Part shown: positions 3,104 through 31,277 of the stretch, in pieces
How the letters are laid out: every line of letters starts with the position of its first letter
Numbering within the stretch: position 1 is the first letter of the stretch
Assembly: GCA_049303575.1 (NCBI GenBank)
Contig: JBAQNH010000002.1
Span: forward strand, 572,541-636,540
DNA: 64,000 bases
Origin: Microgenomates group bacterium
Lineage (GTDB): Bacteria > Patescibacteriota > Microgenomatia > UBA1400 > MFAQ01
Direction of reading: 5' to 3'
Notes under the pieces: generated by a model
Database searches by the model: none
What the model was told of the DNA's origin: nothing
Seen by the model: only the letters and a program-made list of their open reading frames with translations
Position numbers and translations under genes: made by a program

Positions 3104-3106
3104 AAA

Positions 3107-3727
3107 TTAAAATTTGCGTATAACGCCAACGCACTTACCCTGTACTTTAACATTAATTGCGAAAATAGGGGACATAGATGAGTTTGCCGGTTCCAAACGG
3201 ACTCTGGTTCTTTCGCGAAAAAATCTTTTTAAGGTAGCTAAACCGTTTTCTAGCAAAGCCACCACAATATCACCGTCCTTTACTCCGGCTGCATCACACT
3301 CTTCAATAATTACGTAATCATGGTCAAAGATTCCTTCTTCAATCATCGAGTCTCCCTTAACCTGTAAAACAAAGGCTCGTTTCTTGCCCGAAAGCATCGA
3401 TGCCGCCACCTTCATGGAAGCATTAGGGTCAGTTAGCGGTTCAATTGGTCTTCCGGCTGCGATAAAACCTAGTATTGGTAACTCAATTGAAGCCGACTCC
3501 ACGCTTCCACGATCAACCAGTGAAATTCCTCGAATTGCTCCCTCAAATTTTTTAATGATATTTTTCTTTTCCAAAGCTTGGAGATGTTCGTGAACGGTAG
3601 CCAGAGAAGAAACTCCAATTGCACCTGCAATTTCCGAAAGGGTGGGGGAGTAACCATTTTTTTGAATAAACTGGGAAATAAATTCCACGATCTGTCTTTG
3701 CCTTCGATAAAGTGTTACGGTCATAAC
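3107..3727 (-). CDS. lexA: LexA repressor (SOS regulator, S24 peptidase)
   Basis: N-terminal winged HTH (LYRRQRQIVEFISQFIQKNGYSPTLSEIAGAIGVSS) and C-terminal autocleavage domain (AAG cleavage site, VKGDSMIEEGIFDHDYVIIE...GDIVVALLENGLATLKRF). Start set at the internal Met (MTVTLYRRQ) of the longer ORF 3107..3808. Confidence 0.85.
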   Translation of the reverse strand, partial: VMTVTLYRRQRQIVEFISQFIQKNGYSPTLSEIAGAIGVSSLATVHEHLQALEKKNIIKKFEGAIRGISLVDRGSVESASIELPILGFIAAGRPIEPLTDPNASMKVAASMLSGKKRAFVLQVKGDSMIEEGIFDHDYVIIEECDAAGVKDGDIVVALLENGLATLKRFFRERTRVRLEPANSSMSPIFAINVKVQGKCVGVIRKF

Positions 3728-3777
3728 TTCATTATTACCAAACAATACCCAAAAGTCAAGCGCTCGAAACTTCACCC

Positions 3778-3797
3778 TTGCGGTGATATAATCGCAA
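3778..3797. promoter_or_regulatory. Candidate operator: inverted repeat TTGCG-N10-CGCAA overlapping an extended -10 (TGaTATAAT, 3784-3792) in the lexA/uvrB divergent intergenic region
   Basis: The sequence cccTTGCGgtgaTATAATCGCAAcc is read directly. It sits about 40 nt upstream of a GTG start preceded by AGGAGGG. Role as a LexA box is inference. Confidence 0.3.
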
Positions 3798-3833
3798 CCA
3801 ACAGACAATTTTGCATCTTAACAGGAGGGTATC

Positions 3834-4169
3834 GTGCTCAAAGAATTCCTAGACAGAATTTTGGGTATTAAAACCAAACCCCGTGTGGAAAATTCCCAGC
3901 AGGTGCCTGAGGGAATTGAAACCCAAACAGGACCAAGAAAGGAAATTCTTACGGGAGGATTTGTTTATGTACATCCCGAAGAGTGTGAAGGCTATACTAT
4001 GTTCACCGATAACATCGGCAATGCTGTTAAATTCATCCACTCGGCCAAAACACTCAAAGAAAAGAAAGAAAGAGAAAAACTGTACGAGGAAGTGGGTAAG
4101 AGGGAAGCACTCTATCTCGCCAATGCAATGGTAGCAAAAATACAAAAACATCTAGAATCAAATCAATAA
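3834..4169 (+). CDS. Hypothetical 111-aa protein downstream of the lexA-divergent promoter
   Basis: GTG start with strong SD (acAGGAGGGtatcGTG). Followed by a clean rho-independent terminator. No recognisable domain. Confidence 0.5.
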   Translation: MLKEFLDRILGIKTKPRVENSQQVPEGIETQTGPRKEILTGGFVYVHPEECEGYTMFTDNIGNAVKFIHSAKTLKEKKEREKLYEEVGKREALYLANAMVAKIQKHLESNQ

Positions 4170-4176
4170 AAAAACC

Positions 4177-4203
4177 ACCCGATCACCCGATCGGGTTTTT
4201 TTT
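4177..4203 (+). terminator. Rho-independent terminator (ACCCGATC-acc-GATCGGGT followed by T8)
   Basis: Perfect 8-bp stem and T-run seen directly after the 3834..4169 ORF. Confidence 0.7.
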
Positions 4204-4220
4204 CGGGTAAAATATAGACT

Positions 4221-6269: not shown

Positions 6270-6902
6270 TTAGCGGAATTTACAAGCCGTAACAACTCTA
6301 CCACCGATAGCGTCTCTGGAAGATGAAGTATCAATTTTTCTATCACCGATCGCTAGATCATCTGGATCAAAATTATTATTTTCCAGAAACTCCGCCAACA
6401 CTTTCATTGCTTTCTTACCATAGAACTGACTTTCCCTAGTACGATTATCCAAGAGAATAAATAACTGTGTCCCTTTTTTGCAAAATCTTTCAATATCGCT
6501 CAGTAAACCTTCCTCAACAATGCTCTGTGGGTTTGGCGCCACCATCATTATTAAATCGACCTTTACATCCGGTAGTTCATCAGTATAGCCAGGTACAATT
6601 ACTCTTTTTGTATCCTCGTCAATCCTTAAGGAACCTTTTCGAAAATCAATATTATTTGCGTTGATTGCCCGATCTACTCCGATCCAAAGATCACCCTTTC
6701 TTTGACTAACTGATAAATTAGTTCTCTCTCCTCCCGGACCAACATCCAAAACCACAAAATTTCTACCAACAAGAAGGTTCTCCATCTTTTCTTTCTTTTC
6801 CACGGCCCTCATATTACCAAAATCAACCACTTCATAACTTAGGCTACTGCTGATTTCAGTCTTCTTTGCTTTTTCCGAATTTTCGTTATTCGTTATTTCC
6901 AT
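6270..6902 (-). CDS. Putative SAM-dependent methyltransferase-fold protein (TrmB-like pattern). Function uncertain
   Basis: VVLDVGPGGERTNLSV...LWIGVD...KVDLIMMVAPNP resembles motif I / motif II / post-II of class I methyltransferases, closest to the tRNA m7G46 methyltransferase layout. Not a confident family call. Confidence 0.4.
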   Translation of the reverse strand: MEITNNENSEKAKKTEISSSLSYEVVDFGNMRAVEKKEKMENLLVGRNFVVLDVGPGGERTNLSVSQRKGDLWIGVDRAINANNIDFRKGSLRIDEDTKRVIVPGYTDELPDVKVDLIMMVAPNPQSIVEEGLLSDIERFCKKGTQLFILLDNRTRESQFYGKKAMKVLAEFLENNNFDPDDLAIGDRKIDTSSSRDAIGGRVVTACKFR

Positions 6903-6958
6903 ATCACCATTATAAGCACATTTACATTAACAGTCATTCGGGTATTTTAGGGTGAAAA

Positions 6959-9901
6959 ATGTTAAAATATAGCGTTATGTCGGAAATCTCACCATCAACC
7001 CATCTCATCATCAGGGGAGCCCGTCAACATAATCTTAAAAATGTTGACCTGATAATTCCCAAAAACAAGCTGGTGGTTTTCACTGGTGTTTCGGGTAGTG
7101 GTAAATCCAGTATGGCTCACGACACCATCTATGCCGAAGGTCAACGTCGCTATGTCGAGTCTCTAAGCTCATACGCCAGACAGTTCTTAGGTGTTATGGA
7201 TAAACCAGATGTTGATCAGATTGAGGGTTTGTCTCCGGCCATTCTCATTGACCAAAAACAGGGAAGTCACAATCCCAGAAGTACCGTCGGTACCGTCACT
7301 GAAGTTTACGACTATCTCCGTTTACTTTTTGCTCGTATTGGTCATCCTCATTGTCCAAACTGTGGCCGAGAAATTATGCCTCAAGACATTAATCAAATCT
7401 ACAAAGCAGTTGTCGAGTTGGCTGTTTCCCATCCCTCATACCAAAAACAAAAGGGGACTAGGGTTATGATCATGGCTCCTTTGGTAAAAAATCAAAAAGG
7501 TGAATTTGCCGATTTATTTCCCAATTTATACAAACAAGGTATTGCGCAAGTTAGAGTTGATGGAAAAATTCTCTCGACCCAATCAACTTTAAGTCTTTTC
7601 AAAAATAATCGTCACAACATCGAAGCCATTATCGATAAACTGGTCATTGGCCAAGTAAACAACGGCATCGAATACGAAAAACAACGTTTGATTGACTCCA
7701 TTGAACAGTCAATCAAAATGGCTGACGGTGAAAGCATCATCAGTATTGTTGACGATCCATCTCTTTCCTTTCCTGAGAATCCGGAAAAAATGGAGGATCA
7801 TCTTTTTTCTCAAAAACTATCCTGTCCTGTTTGTAACATCTCGATTCCCGAAATAGAACCTCGTTATTTTTCCTTCAACGCTCCCGACGGGGCCTGTCCC
7901 GAATGTACTGGTCTGGGAACTAAAATGGTTCTCGACACGGACAGTATTATTTCTCCGACCCTTACCCTTTACGAAGGAGCTATCATTCCGTTAGCTTCTC
8001 AATTTGAAACACGTACTTGGTTGGCTAAACTCATTGTCGAAGCCATGAGTTCGGTAGATTTTTTACCTACCACTCCCTTGAGTCAAATGACCGAGAAACA
8101 AAGTCAAGCCCTGTTCTCCGGCACCGGAGATAAAATTTTCTCCGTCAAAGGCATTAACCGTCACGGAAAATCTGTTTCGTGGAAAAGTAAGTACGAAGGT
8201 CTCGCCAAAGAGTTTGAACGCCGCTATACCGAAACAAGCTCTGATGCTCTTAAAGAAGAAATCGAAAAATACTTAATCAAAAAAACCTGTCCTGTTTGTC
8301 AGGGAACCCGTCTCAAACCGGAAGTTCTTGCTGTCCACGTTGATGGCAAATCCATTAGTGAAGTAACCGCACAATCAATTGAGAATGATGTTGTCTTTTT
8401 TGAAGAATTAAATAAAAAACTTACTCCCTCGGAACAACAAATTAGTCTTCCCATTGTCAAAGAAATAGGGGACAGACTTAGTTTCCTTGTCTCGGTTGGT
8501 CTTGACTATCTGACTCTAGGTAGAGAGTCGGGTACTTTATCTGGTGGTGAACTTCAGCGAATTCGACTGGCAAGTCAAATTGGTTCTCGCCTTACCGGTA
8601 TTCTCTATGTTCTTGACGAACCCACCATCGGTCTTCATCAAAGAGACAATGCCAAACTCATTAAAACACTTCAAGAGCTAGTTAATCTCGGCAACTCCCT
8701 CGTCGTCGTTGAACACGACCAACAAACAATGGAGTCGGCTGATCACTTGGTTGAGTTTGGACCTCAAGCAGGAGAACTTGGCGGCAAAATTACTTTTGAG
8801 GGAACAATCGAGGAAATGAAAAAGTCCGGCTGTATTACTGGAAAATATATTTCTGGTGTAAATAAAATTATCGCCAACAAACCCAAAAATCCACCTGAAA
8901 GCCAGGGCTCAATTCGTTTGTCGGGTTGTAACCATCACAACCTCAAAGATGTCGACGCCGAGTTCCCCTTGAACAGATTTATTGCTGTTACCGGTGTTTC
9001 CGGTTCTGGAAAATCATCTCTTGTCGTTGAAACACTTTACGAGGCCTTATCCCAAAAACTCAACTCTATGCACCGCAAACAGGACATTACCTATGGTTCT
9101 ATCTTGATTCCCGATGCCGTCAAAAGAGTCTCTTTAATTGACCAAAGTCCAATCGGTAAAACTCCAAGAAGTAATCCTGCTACCTACACCAAAGTCTTTG
9201 ACCACATTCGTTTACTTTTTTCAAACACTCAAGAGGCTCGTTTCCGTGGATACGGACCGGGACGTTTTAGTTTTAATGTCAAAGGCGGTCGCTGTGAAAC
9301 CTGCCAGGGTGATGGTCAGCTGAAAATCGAAATGCAGTTTATGGGGGATATTTATATTACCTGTGACACCTGTAAGGGAGCACGGTTCAACGAACCAACA
9401 CTGGAGGTTGAGTACAAAGGTAAAAACATCGCCGACGTTCTAAGTATGACCATGGACGAAGCTGCTATCTTTTTCAAAAACATTCCTACCATAAACAAAA
9501 AACTCGATACCATCCGAAAAGTTGGTTTGGGATACATCAAGATGGGCCAGTCAGCACCAACCCTCTCCGGTGGAGAAGCCCAGCGTGTTAAGCTTGCCAC
9601 CGAACTAGCCAAAACCGGCAATGGCCACACCGTTTATATTCTCGACGAACCAACCACCGGACTCCATTTTGCCGATCTTAGCAAACTTGTCCAAACTTTA
9701 GTTGACCTGGTCAATCAGAACAACACCGTTATTGTCATCGAGCACAATCTTGACGTCATCAAAAATGCCGATTACCTCATTGATATGGGTCCCGAGGGTG
9801 GAAATGAGGGCGGAGAAATAATTGCCACGGGAAGTCCTCAAAAAATTGCTGATCACTTTGATACTGCTACTTCACAGGAATTAAAGAAACTTCTGTTGTA
9901 A
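6959..9901 (+). CDS. uvrA: Excinuclease ABC subunit A
   Basis: IIRGARQHNLKNVDLIIPKNKLVVFTGVSGSGKSS, two ABC ATPase modules, zinc-finger CxxC pairs, LSGGEAQRVKLA signature. The true start may be the internal Met at 6977. Confidence 0.95.
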   Translation: MLKYSVMSEISPSTHLIIRGARQHNLKNVDLIIPKNKLVVFTGVSGSGKSSMAHDTIYAEGQRRYVESLSSYARQFLGVMDKPDVDQIEGLSPAILIDQKQGSHNPRSTVGTVTEVYDYLRLLFARIGHPHCPNCGREIMPQDINQIYKAVVELAVSHPSYQKQKGTRVMIMAPLVKNQKGEFADLFPNLYKQGIAQVRVDGKILSTQSTLSLFKNNRHNIEAIIDKLVIGQVNNGIEYEKQRLIDSIEQSIKMADGESIISIVDDPSLSFPENPEKMEDHLFSQKLSCPVCNISIPEIEPRYFSFNAPDGACPECTGLGTKMVLDTDSIISPTLTLYEGAIIPLASQFETRTWLAKLIVEAMSSVDFLPTTPLSQMTEKQSQALFSGTGDKIFSVKGINRHGKSVSWKSKYEGLAKEFERRYTETSSDALKEEIEKYLIKKTCPVCQGTRLKPEVLAVHVDGKSISEVTAQSIENDVVFFEELNKKLTPSEQQISLPIVKEIGDRLSFLVSVGLDYLTLGRESGTLSGGELQRIRLASQIGSRLTGILYVLDEPTIGLHQRDNAKLIKTLQELVNLGNSLVVVEHDQQTMESADHLVEFGPQAGELGGKITFEGTIEEMKKSGCITGKYISGVNKIIANKPKNPPESQGSIRLSGCNHHNLKDVDAEFPLNRFIAVTGVSGSGKSSLVVETLYEALSQKLNSMHRKQDITYGSILIPDAVKRVSLIDQSPIGKTPRSNPATYTKVFDHIRLLFSNTQEARFRGYGPGRFSFNVKGGRCETCQGDGQLKIEMQFMGDIYITCDTCKGARFNEPTLEVEYKGKNIADVLSMTMDEAAIFFKNIPTINKKLDTIRKVGLGYIKMGQSAPTLSGGEAQRVKLATELAKTGNGHTVYILDEPTTGLHFADLSKLVQTLVDLVNQNNTVIVIEHNLDVIKNADYLIDMGPEGGNEGGEIIATGSPQKIADHFDTATSQELKKLLL

Positions 9902-16870: not shown

Positions 16871-16969
16871 TAAATAATATTCTCCCATACAGGGAGAATA
16901 TTTTTATCAAAACGAAACCCAAAGAATCGTGTCTTCCTCCACAAACATATTGCTCTCTGCTGTAGATCT

Positions 16970-20339: not shown

Positions 20340-20511
20340 GCACACGTATATTTTAACTCAAAAAAATCTTGAGTGGCTAGAAGATGGGGTTTCGCCAGCC
20401 AGAAAATAGTTTAGTCTATCAACAAAAAAACCCGGTGATGATAGTCTCTCTAGCAAACCAAATAAAACACTATTTAGCTTGCGAGAGAACCCTTCAATTA
20501 CCTTACTAAGG

Positions 20512-20982
20512 TTAAACCTCCTTGTTTATTATGTGTACAAACTCGTTATTCTCCAGAATAATTTTAGGGAGAACAACAGGTTTAATATCTACACCTTCAA
20601 AATCATTTGGCTTTATTGCCACAAAACCCAAGTTATGTGAATTACCGGACTTTATCTCACTTAAATTCAAACTTATATCTATATCAACACGATAAACTAG
20701 TGCAAGTTCGTGATATTTTCCACCTCCCCCAGGTAGAACAAAAAAATTCTCAATTACAGCTACCAATTTTAAATCATTACATTTCAGTCCAATTTCCTCC
20801 ATCAGCTCTCTTTTTGCCGACTCAGAGGAGTCCTCATTAATACTTGCTTTTCCACCAACCGCAAATAAATATCCATCCCCAGATTTTTCAAAAATGTAAC
20901 CATCAGGTGTATTTAAAAGTACAACTACCCTATAATTAAAAACCGTATCTTCAACAACGAACTGTAAATCACCTTTTTGCAT
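20512..20982 (-). CDS. NUDIX hydrolase
   Basis: Nudix box GGKASINEDSSESAKRELMEEIGL (GX5EX7REUXEEXGU). Confidence 0.8.
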   Translation of the reverse strand: MQKGDLQFVVEDTVFNYRVVVLLNTPDGYIFEKSGDGYLFAVGGKASINEDSSESAKRELMEEIGLKCNDLKLVAVIENFFVLPGGGGKYHELALVYRVDIDISLNLSEIKSGNSHNLGFVAIKPNDFEGVDIKPVVLPKIILENNEFVHIINKEV

Positions 20983-21066
20983 GGTAATTGTAAGTATAAA
21001 ACAATCTAAATAAGAAAAGTGAACTAGATGATAAGTGTCAAAAGATGACAGAGTAAAGCATTAGTG

Positions 21067-21138
21067 AGCGGGTGAGGGGAGTCGGACCCCTTTTATCAGG
21101 TTGGAAACCTGGAGTAATAACCGTTATACGACACCCGC
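21067..21138 (-). tRNA. tRNA-like element resembling tRNA-Gly (anticodon TCC) with a non-canonical T-loop. Possible pseudo-tRNA or island attachment remnant
   Basis: Reverse complement has a perfect 7-bp acceptor GCGGGTG/CACCCGC, a D-loop with GG, an anticodon loop TTTCCAA (U33, A37), and T-stem AGGGG/CCCCT. The T-loop is TCCGACT (C instead of T at position 55), and there is one mismatch each in the D- and anticodon stems. Confidence 0.45.
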
Positions 21139-21169
21139 ATAACCCCTAAATTATATCAAACTTTCACGA

Positions 21170-21844
21170 TTATCCAGCTACAGCATCAACCCACCCAAGT
21201 ATACGTCTATGGAGTGATACTCCAAATTTTGTGTCACCATTTGCCAAAACACGCAATTGTACTGTACCGTGTGGCAATTTGTGTTTACTATGTTTCTCTT
21301 TTCTAATATCAATCTGTGTTTTTCCAAATTGTTTTATTGGAATTCCGGAAACACTTGACCAATATTCCATATCTTTGTCAATGTTGTTATCAGGATACGA
21401 GTGTAAAGCTAAAGACAGATTGTTCATGGTCAAACCAATTACCTCGACAAACCATTTGACTGCAATCTTAATTACTCTCGGATCAGAATTAGTAATTCTC
21501 ACAGACTCAATCATTTTTGTACCCTCACCTAGGTACAATCCTATTCCAAATAGCCACAAGTCTCTCGAAGAGATAACACCAATTTCCTTAATTGCAGATT
21601 TATGAATCTCTTTTATACTATCCAACTTTTTTTGATGCCTATTACTAGCGGACAAATTAGTTCCATTGGCGATTCGTTCTAAAGTAATCTTGTTAGGAGT
21701 GAAGGGAATCATTTTCAACCAATCGCTTAGTGTACTTCTTGGTAATTCAAGATCCTTGTGAATGTAAGAATAGGAAAATCCCTCTTTTCTCAATGCTATC
21801 GCTTTTTCTCTAAGAATTTTTCTATCCTGGACAGCCATATACAT
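21170..21844 (-). CDS. HTH-domain protein with a LAGLIDADG-like motif (possible free-standing homing-endonuclease-like or DNA-binding protein)
   Basis: N-terminal HTH-like segment (RKILREKAIALRKEGFSYSYIHKDLELPRSTLSDWL). Central WLFGIGLYLGEGTK resembles a LAGLIDADG-type motif. Family call is tentative. Confidence 0.4.
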   Translation of the reverse strand: MYMAVQDRKILREKAIALRKEGFSYSYIHKDLELPRSTLSDWLKMIPFTPNKITLERIANGTNLSASNRHQKKLDSIKEIHKSAIKEIGVISSRDLWLFGIGLYLGEGTKMIESVRITNSDPRVIKIAVKWFVEVIGLTMNNLSLALHSYPDNNIDKDMEYWSSVSGIPIKQFGKTQIDIRKEKHSKHKLPHGTVQLRVLANGDTKFGVSLHRRILGWVDAVAG

Positions 21845-22092
21845 CTAAGTATACCAAATAACGTGTACGTAATAGAGAATTACAACAATTATTAAAAACC
21901 TCCAGTTGTCGAGAGGAAGCGAACAATTACGAACCTCTCATGGAAGCTATTTTATCATGCTGGAAACCGGTTAATTTAGACTTCAAAAAAATACTCCTCA
22001 CAAAGGACAATATGACTACAGGCACTAATGAGGGTGGATTCTCTTATCTATATTGATTAGGGTGGTCATTCTTGAACCATTTAGAAAGTGGT

Positions 22093-22653
22093 CTACAGCC
22101 ATCTAGCCACTCCTCCATGATGCGAACAAGTACCTCTTCGACTCTGACTAAACGAATATGTCCCATCACCACACTTCGCTGATGCTCCCACAGGCACACC
22201 TCCGTCATTCGTATAGCTCGGTGACTGTACGGTCTGTCCAGCGGTGTTTACGTAAGTCTTATCATTTACAGTGACACTTTCTTTTGTCGGCGTTGGTGTC
22301 TTAGTGGGGGTTGGAGTAAGCGAGGGCGTAGTTGTACTTGTGGGTTCGAGGGTAATTGCAGATGTGGGTGACGTTGGTGAGATATTCAAACTACCCGACC
22401 CAACAGAATATTCTTCAGAAACAGGAGTGATCGTCGGAGAAATATTGGTAACCGAAGTTCCTTTGACATCTTTACCAGTCTCAGGAGCCGTAACTCCAAT
22501 CAACACGAACAAGGCGACTATAATTCCAATCATTACTAGTCCAAACTTCTTTCTACTTACACCGTCCTTCCTGACAATCCAAACAGGTTTAATCAGCCCT
22601 ATAGGTAGAGCAATTAAACTCAAGAAAAACAATAATCCAAATACAATAGCCAC
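22093..22653 (-). CDS. Membrane-anchored protein with Pro/Thr-rich linker and C-terminal DUF3761 domain
   Basis: N-terminal TM helices, PT-rich low-complexity region, C-terminal CGDGTYSFSQSRRGTCSHHGGV (DUF3761 signature). Confidence 0.6.
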   Translation of the reverse strand: MAIVFGLLFFLSLIALPIGLIKPVWIVRKDGVSRKKFGLVMIGIIVALFVLIGVTAPETGKDVKGTSVTNISPTITPVSEEYSVGSGSLNISPTSPTSAITLEPTSTTTPSLTPTPTKTPTPTKESVTVNDKTYVNTAGQTVQSPSYTNDGGVPVGASAKCGDGTYSFSQSRRGTCSHHGGVARWL

Positions 22654-22721
22654 AATGTCCCGTATTATAGACCAAACCGGTCCGTGGATTCAGCTCATTA
22701 CATTTCCACTTGAAAATAAAG

Positions 22722-23351
22722 CTAATGATTGGTTGTCTCCACAACCGGTCTTTGTCTCTTCTTCCCCGATAACTTTTTTACCAATACTCCTTTAGAAATA
22801 TCGAAATCTTTCATAACATCTCTTAAGGAGATTATAAGCGTACCCAGTTGTTCAATAGATTCAAAAGCAATTTCTTCAACAGGCCTTCCCCAATTTCCGC
22901 GTTTGGGATGCACCCACTGGTTCCCAAGATCGTATAAGTCGTTAAAAAGTTTTGCGCTGTTTTTATCAATAATCTTGTAACCCTTTTTATGGTTATAAAG
23001 AAAATCATTTACGATTTTTCTGAAATCTAAACTTTCGGCAAGCTGCTCAATGATCAATCTGTCCCCATCAATCTCCACCTCTTCATAAAAAATTTCACTT
23101 GCTAAATATTCAGCGATAGATCGACAAACCATAATCGTGGAAGCGAAGTAACCTAGAGAAAAAAGATCCTTTGCTTGATCAAAAAGGTTTACACTTGGAG
23201 TGTCGTACAAAATACCCCCAACCTTAATCCTTTTTATTCTTTTTCCAATTAAAGAAAGGTTTGGTTCGAATTTAGCCAATAAATTACTTGCCACAACATC
23301 GTCAGGTTCACTATTAGCAAACTGTGTATCTAAAGCCAAAAAGACATCCAT
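22722..23351 (-). CDS. Hypothetical protein (209 aa) immediately upstream of, and co-oriented with, the KAP NTPase
   Basis: 62-nt gap to the KAP gene on the same strand. No recognisable domain. Confidence 0.5.
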   Translation of the reverse strand: MDVFLALDTQFANSEPDDVVASNLLAKFEPNLSLIGKRIKRIKVGGILYDTPSVNLFDQAKDLFSLGYFASTIMVCRSIAEYLASEIFYEEVEIDGDRLIIEQLAESLDFRKIVNDFLYNHKKGYKIIDKNSAKLFNDLYDLGNQWVHPKRGNWGRPVEEIAFESIEQLGTLIISLRDVMKDFDISKGVLVKKLSGKKRQRPVVETTNH

Positions 23352-23412
23352 AAGGTATTTTATCCTACCGATGTGTTTACATTAGATATAAAAAATAACA
23401 CGCCTTTTGACA

Positions 23413-26019
23413 TTAAGAGGTTAAAGGAACATCCGTAGTTGAAATTTCCCATGAGGCAAAAATTAAATCTTTCTGCTCATCCAATTCAGGTTTTTTGAGA
23501 TCACTTACATTTTCCAGAAGGATTTTTCCATCCTCAATACTAAAATCTCTCCATAAATCATTTTCTTTGACTAAGAGGGAACTCGCTGCGATTCTCTTCA
23601 CGATGCTAATATTCTTATTAAGAAAAATTTCCACAAGCTTCTTAAACAATTCCATTTTCCCTCCTTTGTTCAAAAATGTTTTTACAGTCTCAGAAGTGAT
23701 TTGGTCAAAATTATCTTCATTGTCCAAAGAGTTATTTAAAAGGGATTTAAGTTTCTCGTTATCACCTTCTTCCATACTCAGATTACTTCTCTGAGAAATT
23801 ATATTTACAATTTCCGAAATACTCAGATTTGCTTCAAAAAGACTTGTCTTGCATGGCCCAAATAAACCATAATCTTCTAAAAACGACTTGTTTTGTGAAA
23901 CCCAATCAATATCCCTTTTTATCTTTACAAGACTAGGTATAGAGTCTAGGTATAGTCTAGCTAGGTTACCATCTCTCAAACCTTTATCATTCAACTGAGA
24001 AATATCCGATTTGTATTCCTCTAAAGCTTCAATTCCTTTTATACTTTGCTTAATAACATCGTTATTTCCATTTATACTTAGACAATTTTCCAAAGCAACT
24101 AAATCACGCGGTGTTTCAGAAAAAGCAATCGTTGCAATGTCCTGCAAACTATCTTTAATATCTATTTTAATATTGTCAGGAAGTTGCTTTATCATCTCCC
24201 ACAGATGCTCTCTATAGGTAGGTTCGTTACGGTAAAAATCAGATAAACCTTCTCTACTTTTTGCAAATAACGAATTCACGTATTGCTGTCTAGATAATAA
24301 CCTAAACTCGTCAGGAAACATGCCGACAATATCTAATTTAGATTTCCAATCTCCCAATCTCTCTGACCATTCTTGAGACTCTGCAGCTAATTTTAGACTC
24401 TCCAAAATAATATTTTGTCGCTCGTTTGGATCCTCAGTATTATCAAATTCTTTTAGTGCGGTATCAGCATATTCTTTATTTTTGTCAGGAGTTATTCCTC
24501 CTTTTGTCATCGTCTCTCCAAGTTTGTTAACTAGTTGACCTTGTTTAAGGTATTCTAAAAATTTAGAGGGGTCCGGTCCTAAAGAGCTGGGAAGACCAGT
24601 AGCGGCAGAAAAATAAAAATAATTAGCTGGTTCGTATATCGTAGTTCCTTCATCGTTTGTAAACTTAGGAGATTGCTTTAATAAATTTGCATATTTGACC
24701 ATTGCATTATCTTCACCAAGTAGTTTTATAACACTAATACCTATGGCTAAATCATCCCTCTTTGGATCCATTCTTAACATTTTTTCATGACCTACAATAG
24801 CCTCTGGATGTAAAACCAATTTTTCATACACGGGGAAAAAGAATTCTTCGATAGTCAATATCTTTGCAATAAGGTCAATGTGAAGTAGCATGGAGGAAAG
24901 TTCTTTTGCTACATTTTCCTCTTGGTCTAGAATCAATGTATTTTTCTGAGTGATAAGACTTTCTACATTAAAACGAACCTTGTCTATAAATCGAATTACA
25001 TTCCTTGGGTTTCTGGCAAATAAGTCATCGTTCATAAGTAGAAGCTTAAAATTTTCTTTAACTTCGTCTGAAGCAAAAACCAGTTTTGATTTTTTTAATT
25101 CGTCATCAACAAACGATCCGAATTGATTAGAAGTTGGATACGGCATTCTCCAATAAACATTAAAAAGTTTTTTTATATACTCACGGCCTTTTTCAAGTTT
25201 TTGTTCTGGAGACATTGTTTCAAGAAGCTGTAGATCTACAACTGCGGCTTTTTCCACAACAGTATGATCGGCCGTAACAACAAATGAACATTCTGGGTGC
25301 TGAAAAAACGTACGAAATGCGTCCATGACTATCTTAATGGTAGATGGAGTACATCTATCAAGATCGTCAATGAAAACAACAATTTTTCTCTTTCCCTTTA
25401 GTAGCATATAAAATCTATCTTCAAATTCTTCTGAAGTTGTAACCTTCGCATAGCTTTTTGTCGTTGTAATTTGCTTTAGCAGAGCAGGAATTACAAATAA
25501 AGTTATTATCCACAAAGAAAGTGCTGATAGAAACGGAATAGCAAAAAGTTTAGATATAAGTTCAAAAAGTAAATTTGGTATTCCCAAACCCAAAAAAACA
25601 GCAAAAGCAACCACAAACGTTGTAAAAATAATAAGCCAAGGAATTCTCTTAAGCAACTTCACCAAAGTATCTACAAGTTCACGCCACTCAACATTCGTCT
25701 TCGAAGTATCATAATACAGGTCATCCAGATCAACCTTTGACTGTACAGATTTTTTAACTTCCTTTAAAAACGCTTTTTTAATACTTACTTCGTCTTGAGA
25801 GTATTTCCAAGGATTGAATTTAATTATCGTAAATCCATTATCGGATAAGGGAGTTTCAATTCTGTTTAAAACGTCAGTTTTACCCTCTCCCCACCTACCA
25901 GAAATTGCAAAAACCATATTATCTCTTTCCACCTTCGTTTTTTTCGATTCCTTAGAATAGTGTTTAGCAATCTCTTCCGCTATTTTATTAGCATATAGTT
26001 GGTGATTTAGCCTATCCAT
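23413..26019 (-). CDS. KAP-family P-loop NTPase with transmembrane insert
   Basis: Walker A FAISGRWGEGKTDVL. Hydrophobic helices (IPWLIIFTTFVVAFAVFLGLGIP..., FLSALSLWIITLFVIPALL) are inserted between Walker A and Walker B (KIVVFIDDLDRC). This is the defining KAP architecture. Long alpha-helical C-terminal region. Confidence 0.85.
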   Translation of the reverse strand: MDRLNHQLYANKIAEEIAKHYSKESKKTKVERDNMVFAISGRWGEGKTDVLNRIETPLSDNGFTIIKFNPWKYSQDEVSIKKAFLKEVKKSVQSKVDLDDLYYDTSKTNVEWRELVDTLVKLLKRIPWLIIFTTFVVAFAVFLGLGIPNLLFELISKLFAIPFLSALSLWIITLFVIPALLKQITTTKSYAKVTTSEEFEDRFYMLLKGKRKIVVFIDDLDRCTPSTIKIVMDAFRTFFQHPECSFVVTADHTVVEKAAVVDLQLLETMSPEQKLEKGREYIKKLFNVYWRMPYPTSNQFGSFVDDELKKSKLVFASDEVKENFKLLLMNDDLFARNPRNVIRFIDKVRFNVESLITQKNTLILDQEENVAKELSSMLLHIDLIAKILTIEEFFFPVYEKLVLHPEAIVGHEKMLRMDPKRDDLAIGISVIKLLGEDNAMVKYANLLKQSPKFTNDEGTTIYEPANYFYFSAATGLPSSLGPDPSKFLEYLKQGQLVNKLGETMTKGGITPDKNKEYADTALKEFDNTEDPNERQNIILESLKLAAESQEWSERLGDWKSKLDIVGMFPDEFRLLSRQQYVNSLFAKSREGLSDFYRNEPTYREHLWEMIKQLPDNIKIDIKDSLQDIATIAFSETPRDLVALENCLSINGNNDVIKQSIKGIEALEEYKSDISQLNDKGLRDGNLARLYLDSIPSLVKIKRDIDWVSQNKSFLEDYGLFGPCKTSLFEANLSISEIVNIISQRSNLSMEEGDNEKLKSLLNNSLDNEDNFDQITSETVKTFLNKGGKMELFKKLVEIFLNKNISIVKRIAASSLLVKENDLWRDFSIEDGKILLENVSDLKKPELDEQKDLIFASWEISTTDVPLTS

Positions 26020-26149
26020 TATGAAGATATGATAACCCCAATTTATATAACATCAACACCTTAATCATTTTTCTTACAGTTTTATGCTCAAAACAGTCAA
26101 GCTAATACAAATGTTAAACTTAATAATCTCCAAACAATAAAGTAGCCGC

Positions 26150-26572
26150 ATGACAGTCAATATAATTACAAAATATAAATCTCCAAAATTCCAATTATGG
26201 TGCAAGTATTTCTTTGACAAGAGCAATAGAACTACATACGGTAACGCCGCACAATCCACCTTAAAAGCCTACAACACCACAAACTACCATAGCGCAAGCC
26301 AAATAGGATACGAGAACTTGAGAAAACTTGATTTCCTGAAGCCAGCAATAGCAGAAAGTGAAGGGTTTGGGATTGCTGAGTTTATCAAAGTAGCCATAGC
26401 TAAAGCTCTCAAAGGAAGTTACGCTGATTGGGAAAAACTAGGTATCCAACTTGGTTACTTTGAACCGGAGAAAAAGATACCTACCGTTGCGGTCCAAAAT
26501 AATTTTGACATGTCCACACTAAGGGAAACAGTAAGAAAGGCGAGAATTGATAGGGGATTGTCCGTGGTCTAA
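26150..26572 (+). CDS. Phage terminase small subunit-like protein (Terminase_2-type HTH); no large subunit adjacent
   Basis: KFQLWCKYFFDKSNRTTYGNAAQSTLKAYNTTNYHSASQIGYENLRKLDFLKPAIAE matches the conserved TerS N-terminal pattern (F..EY....NATQAAI.AGYS...A...G..LL....V..AI). Confidence 0.5.
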   Translation: MTVNIITKYKSPKFQLWCKYFFDKSNRTTYGNAAQSTLKAYNTTNYHSASQIGYENLRKLDFLKPAIAESEGFGIAEFIKVAIAKALKGSYADWEKLGIQLGYFEPEKKIPTVAVQNNFDMSTLRETVRKARIDRGLSVV

Positions 26573-26581
26573 TTTGACTCT

Positions 26582-27202
26582 CTACTTCGATAATTTACGC
26601 CTTTCAGTCAACCACAAGACAATATAGACACAAACCGAAATGAAAAACATAACGAGGACAACAGAACGATATTTGTGAAAAAGAAGTAGCATCAAAAAGA
26701 AGAGTGCCTTCTTAGGCATAGCCTGAGACTGTGTACTGCCCCTAAAAAAGCTCGTCATCGAATCGTAGAGGAATGTATCAACAAGCAACATACCGGCCAG
26801 AAATAGACAAGCGTACCCTAACCATTCTTTGTTAGTAGTTTCTTTCTTTAATTCCCGATTTGTTTTAATCACACTTATCGACTCGAATTTATTTTGTACG
26901 TATCCTTTTATCTTCTGGTAATTAAGAATGCACCAGAGGAATGAAATAATATACAACCAGACGCCAGATTCCGTCATCACATTTTCACTTTGTTGTTTAA
27001 GGAAATTGAAAACGGATTTGATGCCTATTGAAGCTGTGCTATACAAAGCACTCGAAGAAGACGCCAGGTTCACCAGAAACGCTGATAACCAGATCACGAA
27101 TAATACTTTAATCGCTAGAGTAAGTTTCAATTTTTTTATTGCGACTATCAAACATTGAAGATTATTTGTCATATTTGTTTCGGTGATTGAAAAAATATAC
27201 AA
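26582..27202 (-). CDS. Hypothetical multi-pass membrane protein
   Basis: Several hydrophobic segments. Co-oriented with the CAP-domain gene. Confidence 0.45.
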   Translation of the reverse strand: MYIFSITETNMTNNLQCLIVAIKKLKLTLAIKVLFVIWLSAFLVNLASSSSALYSTASIGIKSVFNFLKQQSENVMTESGVWLYIISFLWCILNYQKIKGYVQNKFESISVIKTNRELKKETTNKEWLGYACLFLAGMLLVDTFLYDSMTSFFRGSTQSQAMPKKALFFLMLLLFHKYRSVVLVMFFISVCVYIVLWLTERRKLSK

Positions 27203-27380
27203 AAGAAATCACTACACAGACAACAATCCACCTCGGAAGTAAACCATCCCAATTTTCATATTCAGGAGCAAGTATAGAGAGTATCAACATCGGAACCTGG
27301 ATACCAATAATACCCAGACCAACCCCAACTCCAATGGATTTGGGGAGTATGTGAATCAATCTAGAGATTATGTTTTTCAT
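27162..27380 (-). CDS. Small hypothetical membrane protein (72 aa)
   Basis: Two hydrophobic helices. Overlaps both neighbours by short stretches in an operon-like arrangement. Confidence 0.35.
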   Translation of the reverse strand: MKNIISRLIHILPKSIGVGVGLGIIGIQVPMLILSILAPEYENWDGLLPRWIVVCVVISFVYFFNHRNKYDK

Positions 27381-28173
27381 TTAATTGACGATTAGCAAAA
27401 TGTTCTACCGAAAATACGCCACACTGACCGATTCCTACTTCGGTATATGCAGGATCAAGAATGTTGTCTCGATGTTCCTCGCTGTTCATGTACGCCGTAG
27501 CGGTTCTTTTTGTACTGTTGTTGTAATCTCTAGCGATATTTTCACCAGCATGGTAATAGTCATACCCAGCCTTCTTAATAAAATACCAAGGTTGTTTTCC
27601 ATCAGGAGAGACATGTTCAAAGTAATTGTTGTCTCTCATGTCACACGCCTTGGCCTTTGCTGACTCGTCAAGAAGCTTGTTCTCAGTTAACGGCTTTAAC
27701 CCTACTGCGACACGCTCTTTGTTGATTAACCTAACCATGTCTGTGTAAGAAGAGATCTCGATATACGCCGGATCTATCTTGGTTACTCTGTAGTAGTAAT
27801 TTGATCCATAGAAACCTCCGAATAGCCCGATGGCTAACAAAATCATGCTCTTAGAAATCTTCCCAAATATTGTTTCCCTATCTACACTCTTCACTTTTTC
27901 AGAATGTGTTCCTAGGTTTCGTTTGTCTCGCCGATTTTTGTAAATGATATTAAGATAAAAGAATAGAACCAAGAAAGAAATAATACCTATAATAACAGTC
28001 GATATTAAGATGATATTTTGAATTTCTGTGTATGACCCTTCAGAACTGGCGGAAGAAACGAGAAGAAATAATATTACTGACACAAACCACACCAAAGTAA
28101 ATATCAAGGCCAATTTTGTTTGGTTTATAGCATGTTTTGCCATTACGAAAAGTATAGCTCTACATAATACCAA
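27361..28173 (-). CDS. CAP/SCP (PR-1-like, YkwD-type) domain protein with N-terminal TM anchor
   Basis: LINKERVAVGLKPLTENKLLDESAKAKACDM...HAGENIA...MNSEEHRDNILDPAYTEVGIGQCG...VEHF is the CAP domain signature. Confidence 0.7.
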   Translation of the reverse strand: MVLCRAILFVMAKHAINQTKLALIFTLVWFVSVILFLLVSSASSEGSYTEIQNIILISTVIIGIISFLVLFFYLNIIYKNRRDKRNLGTHSEKVKSVDRETIFGKISKSMILLAIGLFGGFYGSNYYYRVTKIDPAYIEISSYTDMVRLINKERVAVGLKPLTENKLLDESAKAKACDMRDNNYFEHVSPDGKQPWYFIKKAGYDYYHAGENIARDYNNSTKRTATAYMNSEEHRDNILDPAYTEVGIGQCGVFSVEHFANRQLNEKHNL

Positions 28174-28250
28174 TCACAAGCTCATTACTGTGCCTAAAAG
28201 AGTCATATAAAGACAACTTTTCTACAGCGTTTTGCTCAAAATCGCTTTAT

Positions 28251-28475
28251 ATGTCTTTTTACTTCACCAAGCAACTTCGAGAAAACATTGGCAAGAAAAT
28301 AAGAAGAGCCAGAAAAAATAAGGGGTTAAAACAAGTTGAAGTCGCTGTCGAGGCTGGAATGAGTCCTAGCTATTACGGCAAGATCGAAAGGGGCATTGTA
28401 AATCCTTCATTGGAAAAGCTTCACAAAATCATAAAATCACTTGGTGTGAAGTCATCAGACATTCTTCCTTTTTAA
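28251..28475 (+). CDS. XRE-family helix-turn-helix transcriptional regulator
   Basis: LRENIGKKIRRARKNKGLKQVEVAVEAGMSPSYYGKIERGIVNPSLEKLHKIIKSLGV is the canonical Cro/C1-type HTH. Divergent from the CAP/membrane operon. Confidence 0.75.
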   Translation: MSFYFTKQLRENIGKKIRRARKNKGLKQVEVAVEAGMSPSYYGKIERGIVNPSLEKLHKIIKSLGVKSSDILPF

Positions 28476-28488
28476 GGGGACAATCTCG

Positions 28489-29241
28489 ATGTATAGGAAA
28501 ATCAACACTAAGAAACAAAAGGGTGTTAATCTCGTGCCTTTCACAAAAGGCGAAGAAAGTTTATTGGGTCTTCTCGAAGAAGATAAACTATTTGGAATTG
28601 TTGTATTAAATATCAGAAATAAACTTGGAATTCCGGCAAAAGGTTTTACTTCTCCGAACAAAGATCGCGAAAACATCAAGAAGATAGAAACAAAAAAACT
28701 TATTAGAGCATCCCACACTCTTTGCAGACTATATAACCTACCTGTTTACTGGGCACCAACCTTTCACATCTACATACTACTAAACAAGACAATAAAAATC
28801 GATGAGTCGTTATATTACAAACCGATCACCATACGCAAACAAAATAACAAGGTGCTCTTGGAAATAAATGAAAGGATTTCAATTAAAGAATTAGGCAGAA
28901 TCTTACAGTTAAACAGCTCCGAATATAAAGACAAAACCAAAAACCTACCACAAAGACCAACCAAAGAAATCAAAAACCTAAAAATACGCAAAAAAATCTC
29001 TCAAGTGGTTTCAATTTTTAGAGATAATCCAAAACCTCAGCCCTACAAAAAAATTGCTGACTTTTTCAATGAAATACAAATTGACCAAGAAACTACCCTA
29101 GACACCTCTGACGAGTCAGTTCTTAGAGAATATGTGTCCAGAAACGACAAAGAACTAAACAAACAAACTGATGATAAGAAACTTGATCTACTTAAACTTG
29201 TTTTGGGTATACAAGATATAGAAGAAGTCATCAAAGATTAA
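28489..29241 (+). CDS. Hypothetical protein (250 aa) downstream of the XRE regulator
   Basis: Lys-rich. No domain recognised. Confidence 0.45.
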   Translation: MYRKINTKKQKGVNLVPFTKGEESLLGLLEEDKLFGIVVLNIRNKLGIPAKGFTSPNKDRENIKKIETKKLIRASHTLCRLYNLPVYWAPTFHIYILLNKTIKIDESLYYKPITIRKQNNKVLLEINERISIKELGRILQLNSSEYKDKTKNLPQRPTKEIKNLKIRKKISQVVSIFRDNPKPQPYKKIADFFNEIQIDQETTLDTSDESVLREYVSRNDKELNKQTDDKKLDLLKLVLGIQDIEEVIKD

Positions 29242-29523
29242 GCTCGCAACAAAAAAGAGTTACTTTTCTTGTTTTTCAAGTTTTTTCCTAAGCGCAATAA
29301 GCTAAGGAAGAATGGAAAGTTCGACTAATAAATCTCAAACAAGACCAGCGACAAGCGTTGAGATAGTCGATGTGTCTTCAAATTCCCCATTGTTAGATCT
29401 TATTACCTTAATGTCATCTGTCCAAACAAATACACCCGAAGCAAAGCAGAATGAAACTACAATTAGTGACGGAAAAGGCGGCCAGATATACTTATAGCGT
29501 TTTACCAACAAATGTCCATATAA

Positions 29524-31119
29524 TTGGGTCATATGGATGATGTCGAAAAAGAGATTGATTTTACCAAGCTTAGGTATGTACTGTACGCAAGGAAATCAAC
29601 CGTCGACGAATCCAGGCAAATACGTTCGATTCCAGATCAGATTAAAGAGTGTCTCGATTTAGCTCATAGAATTGGCATCAAAATTCAGTCTAAAGACATT
29701 CTGCAAGAAACCCAATCCGCGAAGAAACCTAACCAAAGACCTATCTTTAGAAAGATGCTTAATGACATCAAGAAGGGGTTATATGATGGCATTCTTGCAT
29801 GGAATCCTGATCGTCTAGCTAGAAACATGCTCGAGGGCGGAGAGATTATTGACTTAGTTGATCAAAAAATTATCAAGGATCTCAAGTTCGTAACACATCA
29901 CTTTACTGCAGATGCAAATGGGAAAATGCTTCTGGGTATGGCTTTTGTTCTGTCAAAACAATACTCTGATGACCTATCTCAAAAGGTGACCCGCGGAGTA
30001 AGAAATAGTTTCAAAGAAGGCAAAACCCCAACTCCTAAACATGGTTACCTTAACGAAGACAGACTATACAAGCCAGATGGAAATAGTTTTAAGCTACTAC
30101 AAGAAGGCTGGATAATGAGAAGCGAGGGAGTAGGTATTCAAGAAATAGCAGACTACCTAAACGCTAACGGATACACGAAACGAGTAAAACGAAACGGAAA
30201 AGAAATCAAAATAAAGAAACAGATACTTAGCAAAATCTTTAAAGACCCATTCTATTATGGTGTCTTGGTGCAAGCCCAGAAAGAAATTGACTTACGTGAT
30301 GTGTACGACTTTGAAGCAATGGTAACTGAGGATATTTATAACAAAGTACAGCAACTTTCTTTCCGTAGAATAAAACCTAATAAACAACATCACTCGGCCT
30401 TCTATCCACTGAAGGCACTAATTCGTTGCTCATTTTGTGGAAGCAACATGTATGTATCACCATCGTCTGGAAACACAAGAAGGTATCTTAATGCCAGGTG
30501 TGACAACAAGGATTGTCCTAGAAAAAAGAGGGGAATAAGAACAATTGTTGTTTTTAACTTTATTTACGACTTTCTAGAAAAAGGGTTAAATTTTACCGAA
30601 AAAGAATACAACGAATACTATTCAAAGATGGAAAAACTCTCAGATGTAAAAAGAGAAGAGCTAAATATCGAGATACACAGACATGAAGGCTCACTTAAGC
30701 AAATTGAGTATGATCTAAAAGAAACTTCACTTAACATAGTTAAACTGCCAAAAACCTCACCAGCATGGAAAATCAACAGTCAAGAGATTAACGAGTTAGC
30801 AGATCAGGTTCAGGAGTCAAAAGAGATAATCAAAAAACTCAAACAGAGGCTAACAAACCCGGAAGAAGACAAACTAAGCCTCGAAGACTTCTTGAACCTT
30901 TCAAAAAATGCGGGTGCTGTCGTCAAATCTGCAGACGCAGTAGTAAAAGATCAAATTTGCAGAATTATCTTTACGAACTTTTTTGTTGACGAAGAAAAAG
31001 TAACGTCTTATCAACTAAAAGAGCCTTTCGCTACCCTCATAAAACAACGCGAACTATCTCTATGTCGGGGTGGTGAGACTCGAACTCACGACCCCTGCGT
31101 CCCAAACGCAGTACTCTAG
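29524..31119 (+). CDS. Large serine recombinase (resolvase-domain integrase)
   Basis: N-terminal catalytic domain (LRYVLYARKSTVDES...AWNPDRLARN), recombinase domain, and zinc-ribbon CSFCGSNMYV...ARCDNKDCP. The last 18 codons (positions 31066-31119) are antisense to tRNA-Pro. Confidence 0.85.
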   Translation: MGHMDDVEKEIDFTKLRYVLYARKSTVDESRQIRSIPDQIKECLDLAHRIGIKIQSKDILQETQSAKKPNQRPIFRKMLNDIKKGLYDGILAWNPDRLARNMLEGGEIIDLVDQKIIKDLKFVTHHFTADANGKMLLGMAFVLSKQYSDDLSQKVTRGVRNSFKEGKTPTPKHGYLNEDRLYKPDGNSFKLLQEGWIMRSEGVGIQEIADYLNANGYTKRVKRNGKEIKIKKQILSKIFKDPFYYGVLVQAQKEIDLRDVYDFEAMVTEDIYNKVQQLSFRRIKPNKQHHSAFYPLKALIRCSFCGSNMYVSPSSGNTRRYLNARCDNKDCPRKKRGIRTIVVFNFIYDFLEKGLNFTEKEYNEYYSKMEKLSDVKREELNIEIHRHEGSLKQIEYDLKETSLNIVKLPKTSPAWKINSQEINELADQVQESKEIIKKLKQRLTNPEEDKLSLEDFLNLSKNAGAVVKSADAVVKDQICRIIFTNFFVDEEKVTSYQLKEPFATLIKQRELSLCRGGETRTHDPCVPNAVL

Positions 31120-31138
31120 CCATCTGAGCTACACCCCG
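31065..31138 (-). tRNA. tRNA-Pro (anticodon TGG)
   Basis: Reverse complement CGGGGTGTAGCTCAGATGGCTAGAGT... with C1:G72, anticodon stem CTGCG/CGCAG with loop TTTGGGA, T-arm GTGAGTTCGAGTCTCAC. Confidence 0.85.
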
Positions 31139-31200: not shown

Positions 31201-31277
31201 GGTGGGTGTAGCTTAGCTGGCTAAAGCGCCTCCCTGTGGAGGAGGAGATCGCGGGTTCGAATCCCGTCATCCACCCA
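31201..31277 (+). tRNA. tRNA-His (anticodon GTG) with genomically encoded G-1
   Basis: G-GTGGGTG...CATCCAC-C acceptor with the extra 5' G and C73, anticodon stem CCTCC/GGAGG with loop CTGTGGA, T-loop TTCGAAT. Confidence 0.8.

Follow-up and report, generated by a model that had tools for sequence, protein, structure and literature searches.

A tRNA-Pro-targeting island family of Patescibacteria with a serine recombinase gene split by integration, a candidate for phage-satellite-like elements

We analysed a 64,000-nt stretch (the window) of a Collierbacteria (Patescibacteria) genome deposited as Microgenomates group bacterium (GenBank assembly GCA_049303575.1, contig JBAQNH010000002.1, positions 572,541 to 636,540), in which an earlier note, made from the sequence alone, had proposed a roughly 10 kb integrative island with a phage-satellite-like gene set between a tRNA-like element and tRNA-Pro. 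An island of ~9.16 kb does lie at tRNA-Pro, at positions 21907-31067, with both ends mapped to the base; its left end is at 21907, however, and not at 21067 as first proposed. The features that define it are two attachment cores, the targeted tRNA gene, and the gene of a large serine recombinase (LSR), whose detached 3' end, here called the tail, lies at the opposite end of the island:

21907-21911: core TGTCG of attL, the left junction, with host DNA to the left and island DNA to the right, placed where homology breaks
21907-22056, plus strand: tail of the LSR gene, 49 codons and a stop, without a conserved start codon, sharing the LSR reading frame only if attP is reconstituted
29524-31119, plus strand: LSR, integrated isoform, 531 aa from a TTG start (528 aa from the ATG at 29533); Resolvase 4e-21, Recombinase 2e-8, Zn_ribbon_recom 1.4e-5, phrog_95 5e-57
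31063-31067: core TGTCG of attR, the right junction, placed by reading the junction
31064-31138, minus strand: tRNA-Pro(UGG), the integration target, intact after insertion (ARAGORN; Rfam 64.4 bits)

The left junction marks the point where homology to the empty sites of two relatives (L004 and L003) ends and homology among the left ends of related islands (L031 and L035) begins, while the attR core spans the final two bases of the acceptor stem of tRNA-Pro, its discriminator base and two bases of the trailer. Read at the junctions, attB is ...cccacgtTGTCGgggtggtg..., attL is ...cctccagtTGTCGagaggaagcg... and attR is ...actatctctaTGTCGgggtggtg...; the sequence common to attL and attR is TGTCG only (5 bp), or GTCG in relatives. 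Searched for repeats, the island ends showed no long direct ones, as expected for a serine integrase, and the island thus has the very short crossover core that goes with LSRs. No strong dyad symmetry was seen in attP (at most 48%), and promoter and terminator scans performed no better than on shuffled sequence. An inverted repeat, CCTCcagttgtcgaGAGG, encloses attL at 21899-21916, half of it host and half island DNA, and was scored by the scan as a terminator-like hairpin on the minus strand.

Empty sites were obtained by scanning genomes with the flanking BipA protein, which yielded four Collierbacteria relatives; exact-protein look-ups of both flanking genes returned the source contig alone and no strain-level empty site. 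In L003, whose flanks are ~92% identical at the nucleotide level, 20 nt separate tRNA-Gly from tRNA-Pro. L004 (Ca. Collierbacteria GW2011_GWA2_42_17) has tRNA-Gly, then a homologue of a flanking 224-aa gene and, immediately after it, tRNA-Pro and tRNA-His. The tRNA-Pro region is 98-100% identical between the window and these relatives. The alignment with related genomes that the earlier note had suggested for defining the ends therefore gave two empty sites and exact junctions, and relatives were found without the island genes at this site. The note's visual impression that the interval is AT-richer than its flanks also proved correct: GC content is 36.4% in the island (21912-31062) against 41.7% in the rest of the window, below all 143 equal-sized windows outside the island (their minimum 41.1%), and the tetranucleotide distance from the window average is 0.0176, with a maximum of 0.0113 elsewhere. 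Because empty sites in two relatives, exact junctions, atypical composition and an intact LSR coincide, we regard it as practically certain that the region is a mobile integrative island.

Integration splits the LSR gene, which is the element's most unusual trait and one that the earlier note had missed. The domain architecture of the integrated form (resolvase catalytic domain, recombinase domain and zinc ribbon) is complete by Pfam, and the reading frame, as the earlier note had recognised, runs into tRNA-Pro. It extends 57 nt into the antisense strand of the tRNA gene, with codon position 1 at 31063 (TGT CGG GGT ...), so that its last 18 codons (31063-31116) lie at or past the crossover core, 16 of them purely antisense tRNA-Pro, and the protein ends in ...LSLCRGGETRTHDPCVPNAVL. 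When position 31067 is joined to 21912, as in the excised circle, the frame gains 49 codons, CREEANNYEPLMEAILSCWKPVNLDFKKILLTKDNMTTGTNEGGFSYLY, to a total of 562 aa, and stops at 22054-22056, just before the convergent DUF3761 gene. In other words, attP lies inside the LSR open reading frame (ORF), and integration swaps a conserved C-terminal tail of 46-49 aa for 16 residues encoded by antisense tRNA-Pro.

By tblastn, 10 islands have the tail at their left end, where it starts exactly at the core and ends at a conserved Y-x-Y/F stop, with R2, A5, E9 and a Trp invariant. No start codon is conserved, since the DNA to the left of the tail is unrelated host sequence in every case. Substitutions at first, second and third codon positions number 2/1/11 between the window and L031 (binomial p=7e-4), 7/9/26 between the window and L035 (p=1e-4) and 8/10/23 between L031 and L035 (p=2e-3); the other two frames are full of stops, and identities of tail and LSR run parallel in pairwise comparisons (92/87, 73/79, 71/72 and 43/61%). 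Judged by these patterns, the tail evolves as coding sequence. An independent micro-ORF starting at Met12 (21940) was rejected, as this Met is not conserved and conservation reaches upstream to the core. Translation of the LSR probably continues into the tail in the circular form, whenever attP is intact, and coding constraint on the tail would imply that the islands spend evolutionarily relevant time excised. The codon of the invariant Ala5 is always GCG followed by A (GCGA; window 21920-21923), in the P' arm 9-12 nt to the right of the core in every island examined, which suggests a DNA-level constraint, for example LSR recognition of attP, on top of the coding one.

The same junction recurs well beyond this locus. 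In a survey of C-termini covering the 120 closest of >1,800 LSR homologues, 106 carry an x-R-x junction motif at the end of the conserved C-terminus (x-R-G in 92 of these). The underlying CGG GGx corresponds to an acceptor stem beginning with C1, and such a stem is typical of bacterial tRNA-Pro. Most x-R-x homologues terminate four residues later, at a TGA in the T-loop, and 20 of the homologues read through the Pro-anticodon signature (for example VPN, FPK or DPIR); the LSRs of L058 and L059 share their tRNA-Pro-derived terminal peptide with that of the window. A tandem pair of family members (4.4 and 3.6 kb) occupies tRNA-Pro(cgg) in L046 (7115-15110). The junction between them is attP-like, and the upstream LSR runs into the tail of the next island, producing a natural fusion, P0090, annotated as one 554-aa protein. 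An AlphaFold2 model of P0090 has the canonical LSR domains, a coiled coil (368-435) and an extra C-terminal segment (446-503); over the tail, which a single aligned sequence alone carries, the confidence score (pLDDT) is <50 and the model uninformative. Nine ORFs were retrieved when representative proteins were searched with the tail; each is short (50-117 aa) and has the tail at its end, and no further LSR-tail fusion was among them.

Two further loci show variations at the junction. P0003, the LSR of L034 (4635-6197), is 85% identical to that of the window yet ends in ...SRGGETILQLH, with no recognisable tRNA-Pro read-through; its right junction may differ from that of the window (the contig ends soon after). 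Immediately to the left of the island in L035, beside restriction-type genes, lies a second LSR of 564 aa (1024-2718; 32% identity), whose ORF ends 8-10 nt past the junction (~2708), suggesting tandem elements and an integrase ORF at an att junction beyond the LSR family of the window.

Split integrase genes have precedents among tyrosine recombinases. SSV1-type integrases, which are tyrosine recombinases, carry attP within their own ORF and target a tRNA gene, and integration leaves the integrase gene in two large pieces. The present arrangement shares the position of attP, the tRNA target and the partitioning, but here a bacterial serine recombinase loses only a tail of 46-49 aa and keeps its catalytic and DNA-binding domains, so that by comparison it is an analogue, not a member, of this SSV1 class known from archaeal viruses and plasmids (reviewed in PMC8371274). 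Mycobacteriophage BPs, with its integration-dependent immunity, has attP within the repressor gene, and integration alters the C-terminus of the repressor (PMC4557955, PMC3694055). There too a coding region contains attP and a protein C-terminus comes to depend on the state of the element, whereas the affected protein is a repressor that loses a degradation tag, the integrase is of the tyrosine type, and in the island it is the recombinase's own gene that is altered. Phage LSRs (phiC31, Bxb1, A118, TP901-1) and the LSR of phiRv1 share the Resolvase/Recombinase/zinc-ribbon/coiled-coil architecture and a short core without long direct repeats, but differ from the island family, which has an extra conserved C-terminal segment and the attP-spanning tail. 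To our knowledge, attP lies outside the int ORF in these phage systems and in phiRv1, and direction is set by a separate directionality factor. The literature searched, with incomplete coverage that leaves novelty provisional, contained no report of attP inside the ORF of a serine integrase.

The two LSR isoforms may differ in function. A bolder idea, which we put forward tentatively and regard as rather doubtful, is that the split gene acts as a state switch inside what would be the first phage-satellite family described in Patescibacteria (candidate phyla radiation, CPR): the 562-aa LSR made from the circle would integrate, the tRNA-tailed isoform would differ in activity or stability (locked, or biased towards excision), and a C-terminus supplied by topology would partly set the direction of recombination.

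The ~1,857 LSR homologues, essentially all of which come from Patescibacteria metagenomes, include a top 120 at 55-88% identity, while a scan of IMG/VR (2.9 million viral contigs) with an LSR profile found nothing closer than 31% identity. We studied eleven further LSR-bearing islands in ten loci; counts over 11 islands refer to the window and ten relatives, excluding L054, which extends past the 10-kb flank. The left end of the L034 (P0003) island was not located. All right ends examined with ARAGORN are tRNA-Pro genes, with anticodon tgg, cgg or ggg. From these comparisons, the family is widespread in Patescibacteria as small islands (2.9 to >10 kb) targeting tRNA-Pro. Its backbone consists of the LSR, a 61-aa partner, an XRE regulator and a small-terminase-like (TerS-like) protein, the remainder being swappable cargo. 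Sizes, cargo and the best TerS matches are as follows:

Window: 9.16 kb; KAP NTPase; Terminase_2-like
L034 (P0003 island): OLD-type ATPase and UvrD helicase, Gabija-like; Terminase_2-like
L031: 7.2 kb; TIR-like 477-aa protein; Terminase_2, above threshold
L035: 8.8 kb; AAA_21 and DUF4276; GP3_package, 1.5e-13, positions 27-104 of 105
L046, first island: 4.4 kb; phrog_309, 6e-4 (weak)
L046, second island: 3.6 kb; phrog_4102, 1e-15, full length (residues 4-118)
L054: type I restriction-modification, SIR2 and DUF4238
L055: 5.8 kb; Schlafen/AlbA; phrog_2538, 4e-5, and three other TerS PHROGs
L056: 6.5 kb; DUF559
L057: 2.9 kb; methyltransferase
L058: 6.6 kb; phrog_4102, 7e-5
L059: 6.2 kb; OLD-family ATPase; phrog_4044, 2e-8

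The cargo thus varies between islands and is largely defence-like, and would serve in defence. Between the tail and the LSR, the island of the window encodes:

22093-22653, minus strand: DUF3761 membrane-anchored protein, cargo (Pfam DUF3761 4.5e-24)
22722-23351, minus strand: 209-aa protein, no family match (Pfam, PHROGs, PADLOC)
23413-26019, minus strand: KAP-family P-loop NTPase with internal transmembrane helices (Pfam KAP_NTPase 8.6e-31)
26150-26572, plus strand: 140-aa TerS-like protein with an N-terminal Terminase_2-type helix-turn-helix (HTH) and a helical C-terminal part (family-level profiles and phage synteny)
26582-27172, minus strand: 196-aa multi-pass membrane protein, last gene of the CAP operon (ORF and gene call)
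27162-27380, minus strand: 72-aa membrane protein (ORF and gene call; no Pfam match)
27361-28173, minus strand: membrane-anchored CAP/SCP-domain protein, first gene of the leftward operon (Pfam CAP 1.4e-15; phrog_16914 8e-26)
28251-28475, plus strand: 74-aa XRE/Cro-C1-type HTH regulator, divergent from the CAP operon (Pfam HTH_3 1.2e-16)
28489-29241, plus strand: 250-aa orphan protein, its sole database match being itself, no family match (Pfam, PHROGs, PADLOC)
29312-29497, plus strand: 61-aa conserved small protein accompanying the LSR (tblastn; no Pfam match)

Pfam bears out what the earlier note had read here as an XRE regulator divergent from a CAP operon, a KAP NTPase and a DUF3761 protein. 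The note's cargo list stands for the last two, but its HTH/homing-endonuclease-like gene (21170-21844) belongs to the flank, and the "partner" of the KAP NTPase, the 209-aa protein, has an 86% identical copy at the left end of the L035 island, beside different genes and without KAP, which leaves the partnership unproven. PADLOC matched the KAP NTPase to QatA (9e-21) and PifA (8e-18) and found no QatB, QatC or QatD among the island ORFs, so that a QatABCD system is not present as such; the protein (PifA/QatA type) is probably anti-phage cargo, possibly with a single-gene PifA-like role. Counterparts of the CAP (58% identity), 72-aa (83%) and 196-aa (60%) proteins occur in L034, and XRE genes also in L031, L034, L035, L054 and L058. 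The 61-aa protein has homologues at every related locus (L031, L034, L035, L046 in two copies, and L054-L059; tblastn, 27-60% identity, the weakest match being L057 at E=0.003) and would be a recombination directionality factor. The DUF3761 gene, with a Thr/Pro-rich linker, stands out from the 36% GC of the island by its own 45% GC and has no counterpart in any related island; it may therefore be a recent secondary acquisition.

For the element as a whole we lean, by a little, towards an LSR-inserted tRNA-Pro island with a split integrase and a satellite-like life cycle. The LSR inserted the island into the last bases of tRNA-Pro(UGG). When a helper phage infects the cell or is induced, the island would excise; its TerS would direct the helper's large terminase to package island DNA; particles would deliver it to new cells; and there the full-length 562-aa LSR made from the circle would integrate it at tRNA-Pro. 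In the source strain this would entail excision, dependence on a helper, and packaging. Satellite-type transfer through TerS, taken as a claim of its own, we put at about an even chance, and the family is a candidate for the first phage-satellite-like family in Patescibacteria.

Homology of the TerS-like gene to TerS is supported in four ways. A 141-aa protein of L031 scores 31.2 bits against Terminase_2, above the gathering threshold, and matches the 140-aa protein of the window by BLASTP (E=3e-11, 37% identity over 51 aa). Terminase_2 was touched at E<=1 by 17 of 23 members of the protein's family, whose profile has the small terminase of phage SF6 as its top three matches in the PDB (E=0.03-0.15, HTH region); a predicted monomer model is all-helical (pLDDT 77). 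The island of L034 carries a copy 92% identical to that of the window. Two phage contigs of 35-38 kb (L036 and L037) encode a full-length homologue, 41-45% identical, ~0.9 kb upstream of a large terminase (phrog_24361, 7e-22), an SU10-type portal (2e-10) and an SU10-type major capsid protein (1e-46). This is the canonical position of TerS and therefore supports homology. These contigs also encode a DNA methylase and a GroEL-type chaperonin (L036 1332-2918; phrog_5725, 1e-153). By homology, and leaving function aside, the 140-aa protein is a TerS homologue: the earlier note's call falls below the Pfam threshold when the protein is taken alone, but it gains support from family-level profiles and phage synteny. 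Of the 11 islands, 9 encode a TerS-like protein, and these proteins represent several different TerS families. Such swapping of TerS types in a common backbone would be expected under selection for compatibility with helper phages, and is the strongest argument for a satellite-like way of life. In line with the earlier note, a PHROGs scan of the island ORFs matched no large terminase, portal, capsid, tail or lysis families.

A number of results weigh against the satellite-like reading. Alone, the 140-aa protein has no Pfam match at E<=0.01 (phrog_51 E=0.0047) and scores 12.8 bits against Terminase_2 (PF03592), under the gathering cut-off of 26.1, so that its TerS homology is transitive, through the threshold-passing relative in L031, and concerns mainly the HTH. 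Foldseek with the 140-aa model found nothing in the PDB and weak matches in BFVD (best E=0.16; 10 of 39 named small terminase). The L036 and L037 contigs have 47% GC, and a protein cluster look-up returned no host names for them. No TerS was detected in L056 or L057, and TerS is accordingly not essential to the LSR family. Pfam, PHROGs and PADLOC found no primase, helicase or replication initiator in the island of the window or in any related one, a tandem-repeat search found no iterons, and neither Pfam nor PHROGs matched a capsid-morphogenesis or capsid-size gene, or another interference gene, among the island ORFs. A metagenome scan for the conserved P' arm returned duplicates of the integrated L031 and L035 only and no circle, and the public contigs scanned contained no excised or packaged form. 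In addition, tblastn of the 140-aa protein against 50,697 GenBank phages gave no match, and no helper phage was identified.

We hold with less confidence, though as a serious contender, that the element is a self-integrating genomic island and not a satellite, its TerS-like HTH protein being an LSR accessory (a directionality factor or regulator) or a packaging-blocking decoy, and its transfer proceeding for example by natural transformation. That no replication module or capsid-interference gene was detected agrees with this, as do several TerS matches confined to the HTH part, and a TerS-like gene directly upstream of the LSR in some islands (126 aa in L046, 135 aa in L055); the smallest islands (2.9-3.6 kb) seem too minimal for satellite life, two islands do without TerS, and the chromosome flanking L046 carries a competence protein gene (Pfam Competence). 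Some TerS matches are near full length, however (GP3_package and phrog_4102, as listed), the homologue of the window's protein sits at the TerS position of a phage packaging module, and a cofactor role is already filled by the 61-aa protein and by MerR/HTH_17 excisionase-like genes. The exchange of non-homologous TerS families within one backbone fits packaging compatibility and is difficult to account for if the protein is an LSR cofactor.

A decayed prophage could have kept just three genes, those for the integrase, the XRE regulator and TerS, each of them of phage type; this we think very improbable, given eleven independent islands with the same compact plan and no structural-gene fragments, an LSR and detached tail that are intact and under coding constraint, which requires continuing cycles of excision and integration, and the lack of a close LSR relative among 2.9 million viral contigs. 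That the region is ordinary core-genome DNA between tRNA genes, without any mobile element, is refuted by the empty sites, and the exact junction cores and aberrant composition speak against it as well. The satellite-like reading is the best-supported mechanism, but unproven.

The earlier note saw in the gene set the hallmark of phage-inducible chromosomal islands (PICIs) and satellites. Recurrence of TerS from several families, variable and largely defence-like cargo, size, absence of structural genes and the lack of a close IMG/VR relative of the LSR family support the satellite-like reading. PICIs are defined by five core components, namely an integrase, an AlpA/MerR/Stl regulator, a primase-replicase, a capsid-morphogenesis gene and a small terminase (PMC10085698). 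The island has an integrase, though of the serine type, atypical for PICIs, and a small terminase by homology; its regulation module is ambiguous, with an XRE HTH_3 protein only and no AlpA/Stl-type regulator detected, and a MerR/HTH_17 gene stands beside the LSR in L031, L035, L056 and L058. As the primase-replicase and the capsid gene went undetected, it is not a PICI by definition. Like PICIs, including those of Staphylococcus aureus (SaPIs), it is a small site-specific integrative island with an integrase, an HTH regulator with divergent transcription and its own TerS homologue, carries accessory or defence cargo and no tail, lysis or capsid genes, and its 9.16 kb matches the median PICI size of 9.5 kb (PMC10085698). 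Apart from the genes not detected in it, it differs from them in its serine integrase in place of a tyrosine integrase, in the splitting of that gene, and in having relatives down to 2.9 kb. Small LSR-driven phiRv1-like elements are listed as PICI-like in the same source, in which the word "Patescibacteria" does not occur; the literature searched, again with incomplete coverage, contained no report of satellites or of such an island family in Patescibacteria.

The minimalist satellites of Vibrionaceae (PICMIs, for phage-inducible chromosomal minimalist islands) likewise contain very few genes, none of them for capsid remodelling, but their proteins are unrelated and their host is different (PMC10803314). 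The flanking DNA of the window carries several features of its own:

21066-21138, minus strand: tRNA-Gly(tcc) (ARAGORN; Rfam 52.7 bits)
21170-21844, minus strand: 224-aa gene in the flanking DNA between tRNA-Gly and attL (weak HTH_23; weak PADLOC HEase, E=0.006)
31202-31276, plus strand: tRNA-His (ARAGORN/Rfam)

The "tRNA-like element" of the earlier note is thus a genuine tRNA-Gly. The 224-aa gene has a homologue in the island-free L004 (76% amino-acid identity) and none in L003, and is therefore a separately variable gene; a 224-aa gene also adjoins the P0003 island. Directly beside the island site, a second presence/absence segment (20365-21065, with a Nudix gene at 20512-20982), between tRNA-Leu(taa) and tRNA-Gly(tcc), is missing in L003 and L004. 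The window in turn lacks ~6 kb that L004 carries after tRNA-Gly gcc (1563-7549, opposite window ~15877) and ~2.7 kb that L003 carries after tRNA-Gln (1297-3971, opposite window ~16876-16930). With such extra segments in relatives, the tRNA cluster seems to hold several insertion hotspots.

Patescibacteria have tiny genomes, and gene exchange among them is little known. PICMIs carry a tyrosine integrase, AlpA and a primase, and are not known to depend on a TerS of their own. The most interesting results are that the LSR gene is split and that the tRNA-Pro-targeting family is so large and uniform. Serine integrases are widely used tools of genome engineering in which control of directionality is of practical interest; the split integrase is, provisionally, a new arrangement for them, and provides two natural LSR isoforms that differ only in the C-terminal tail. 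Together, the conserved tail, the tRNA-Pro gene and the GTCG core allow islands to be delimited to the base in metagenomes. What emerges is a large family of Patescibacteria mobile islands that is easy to recognise, found at a tRNA-Pro gene at every site examined, and because the islands bring swappable, mostly defence-type cargo and usually a putative packaging gene, phage-satellite biology in the phylum becomes directly testable.

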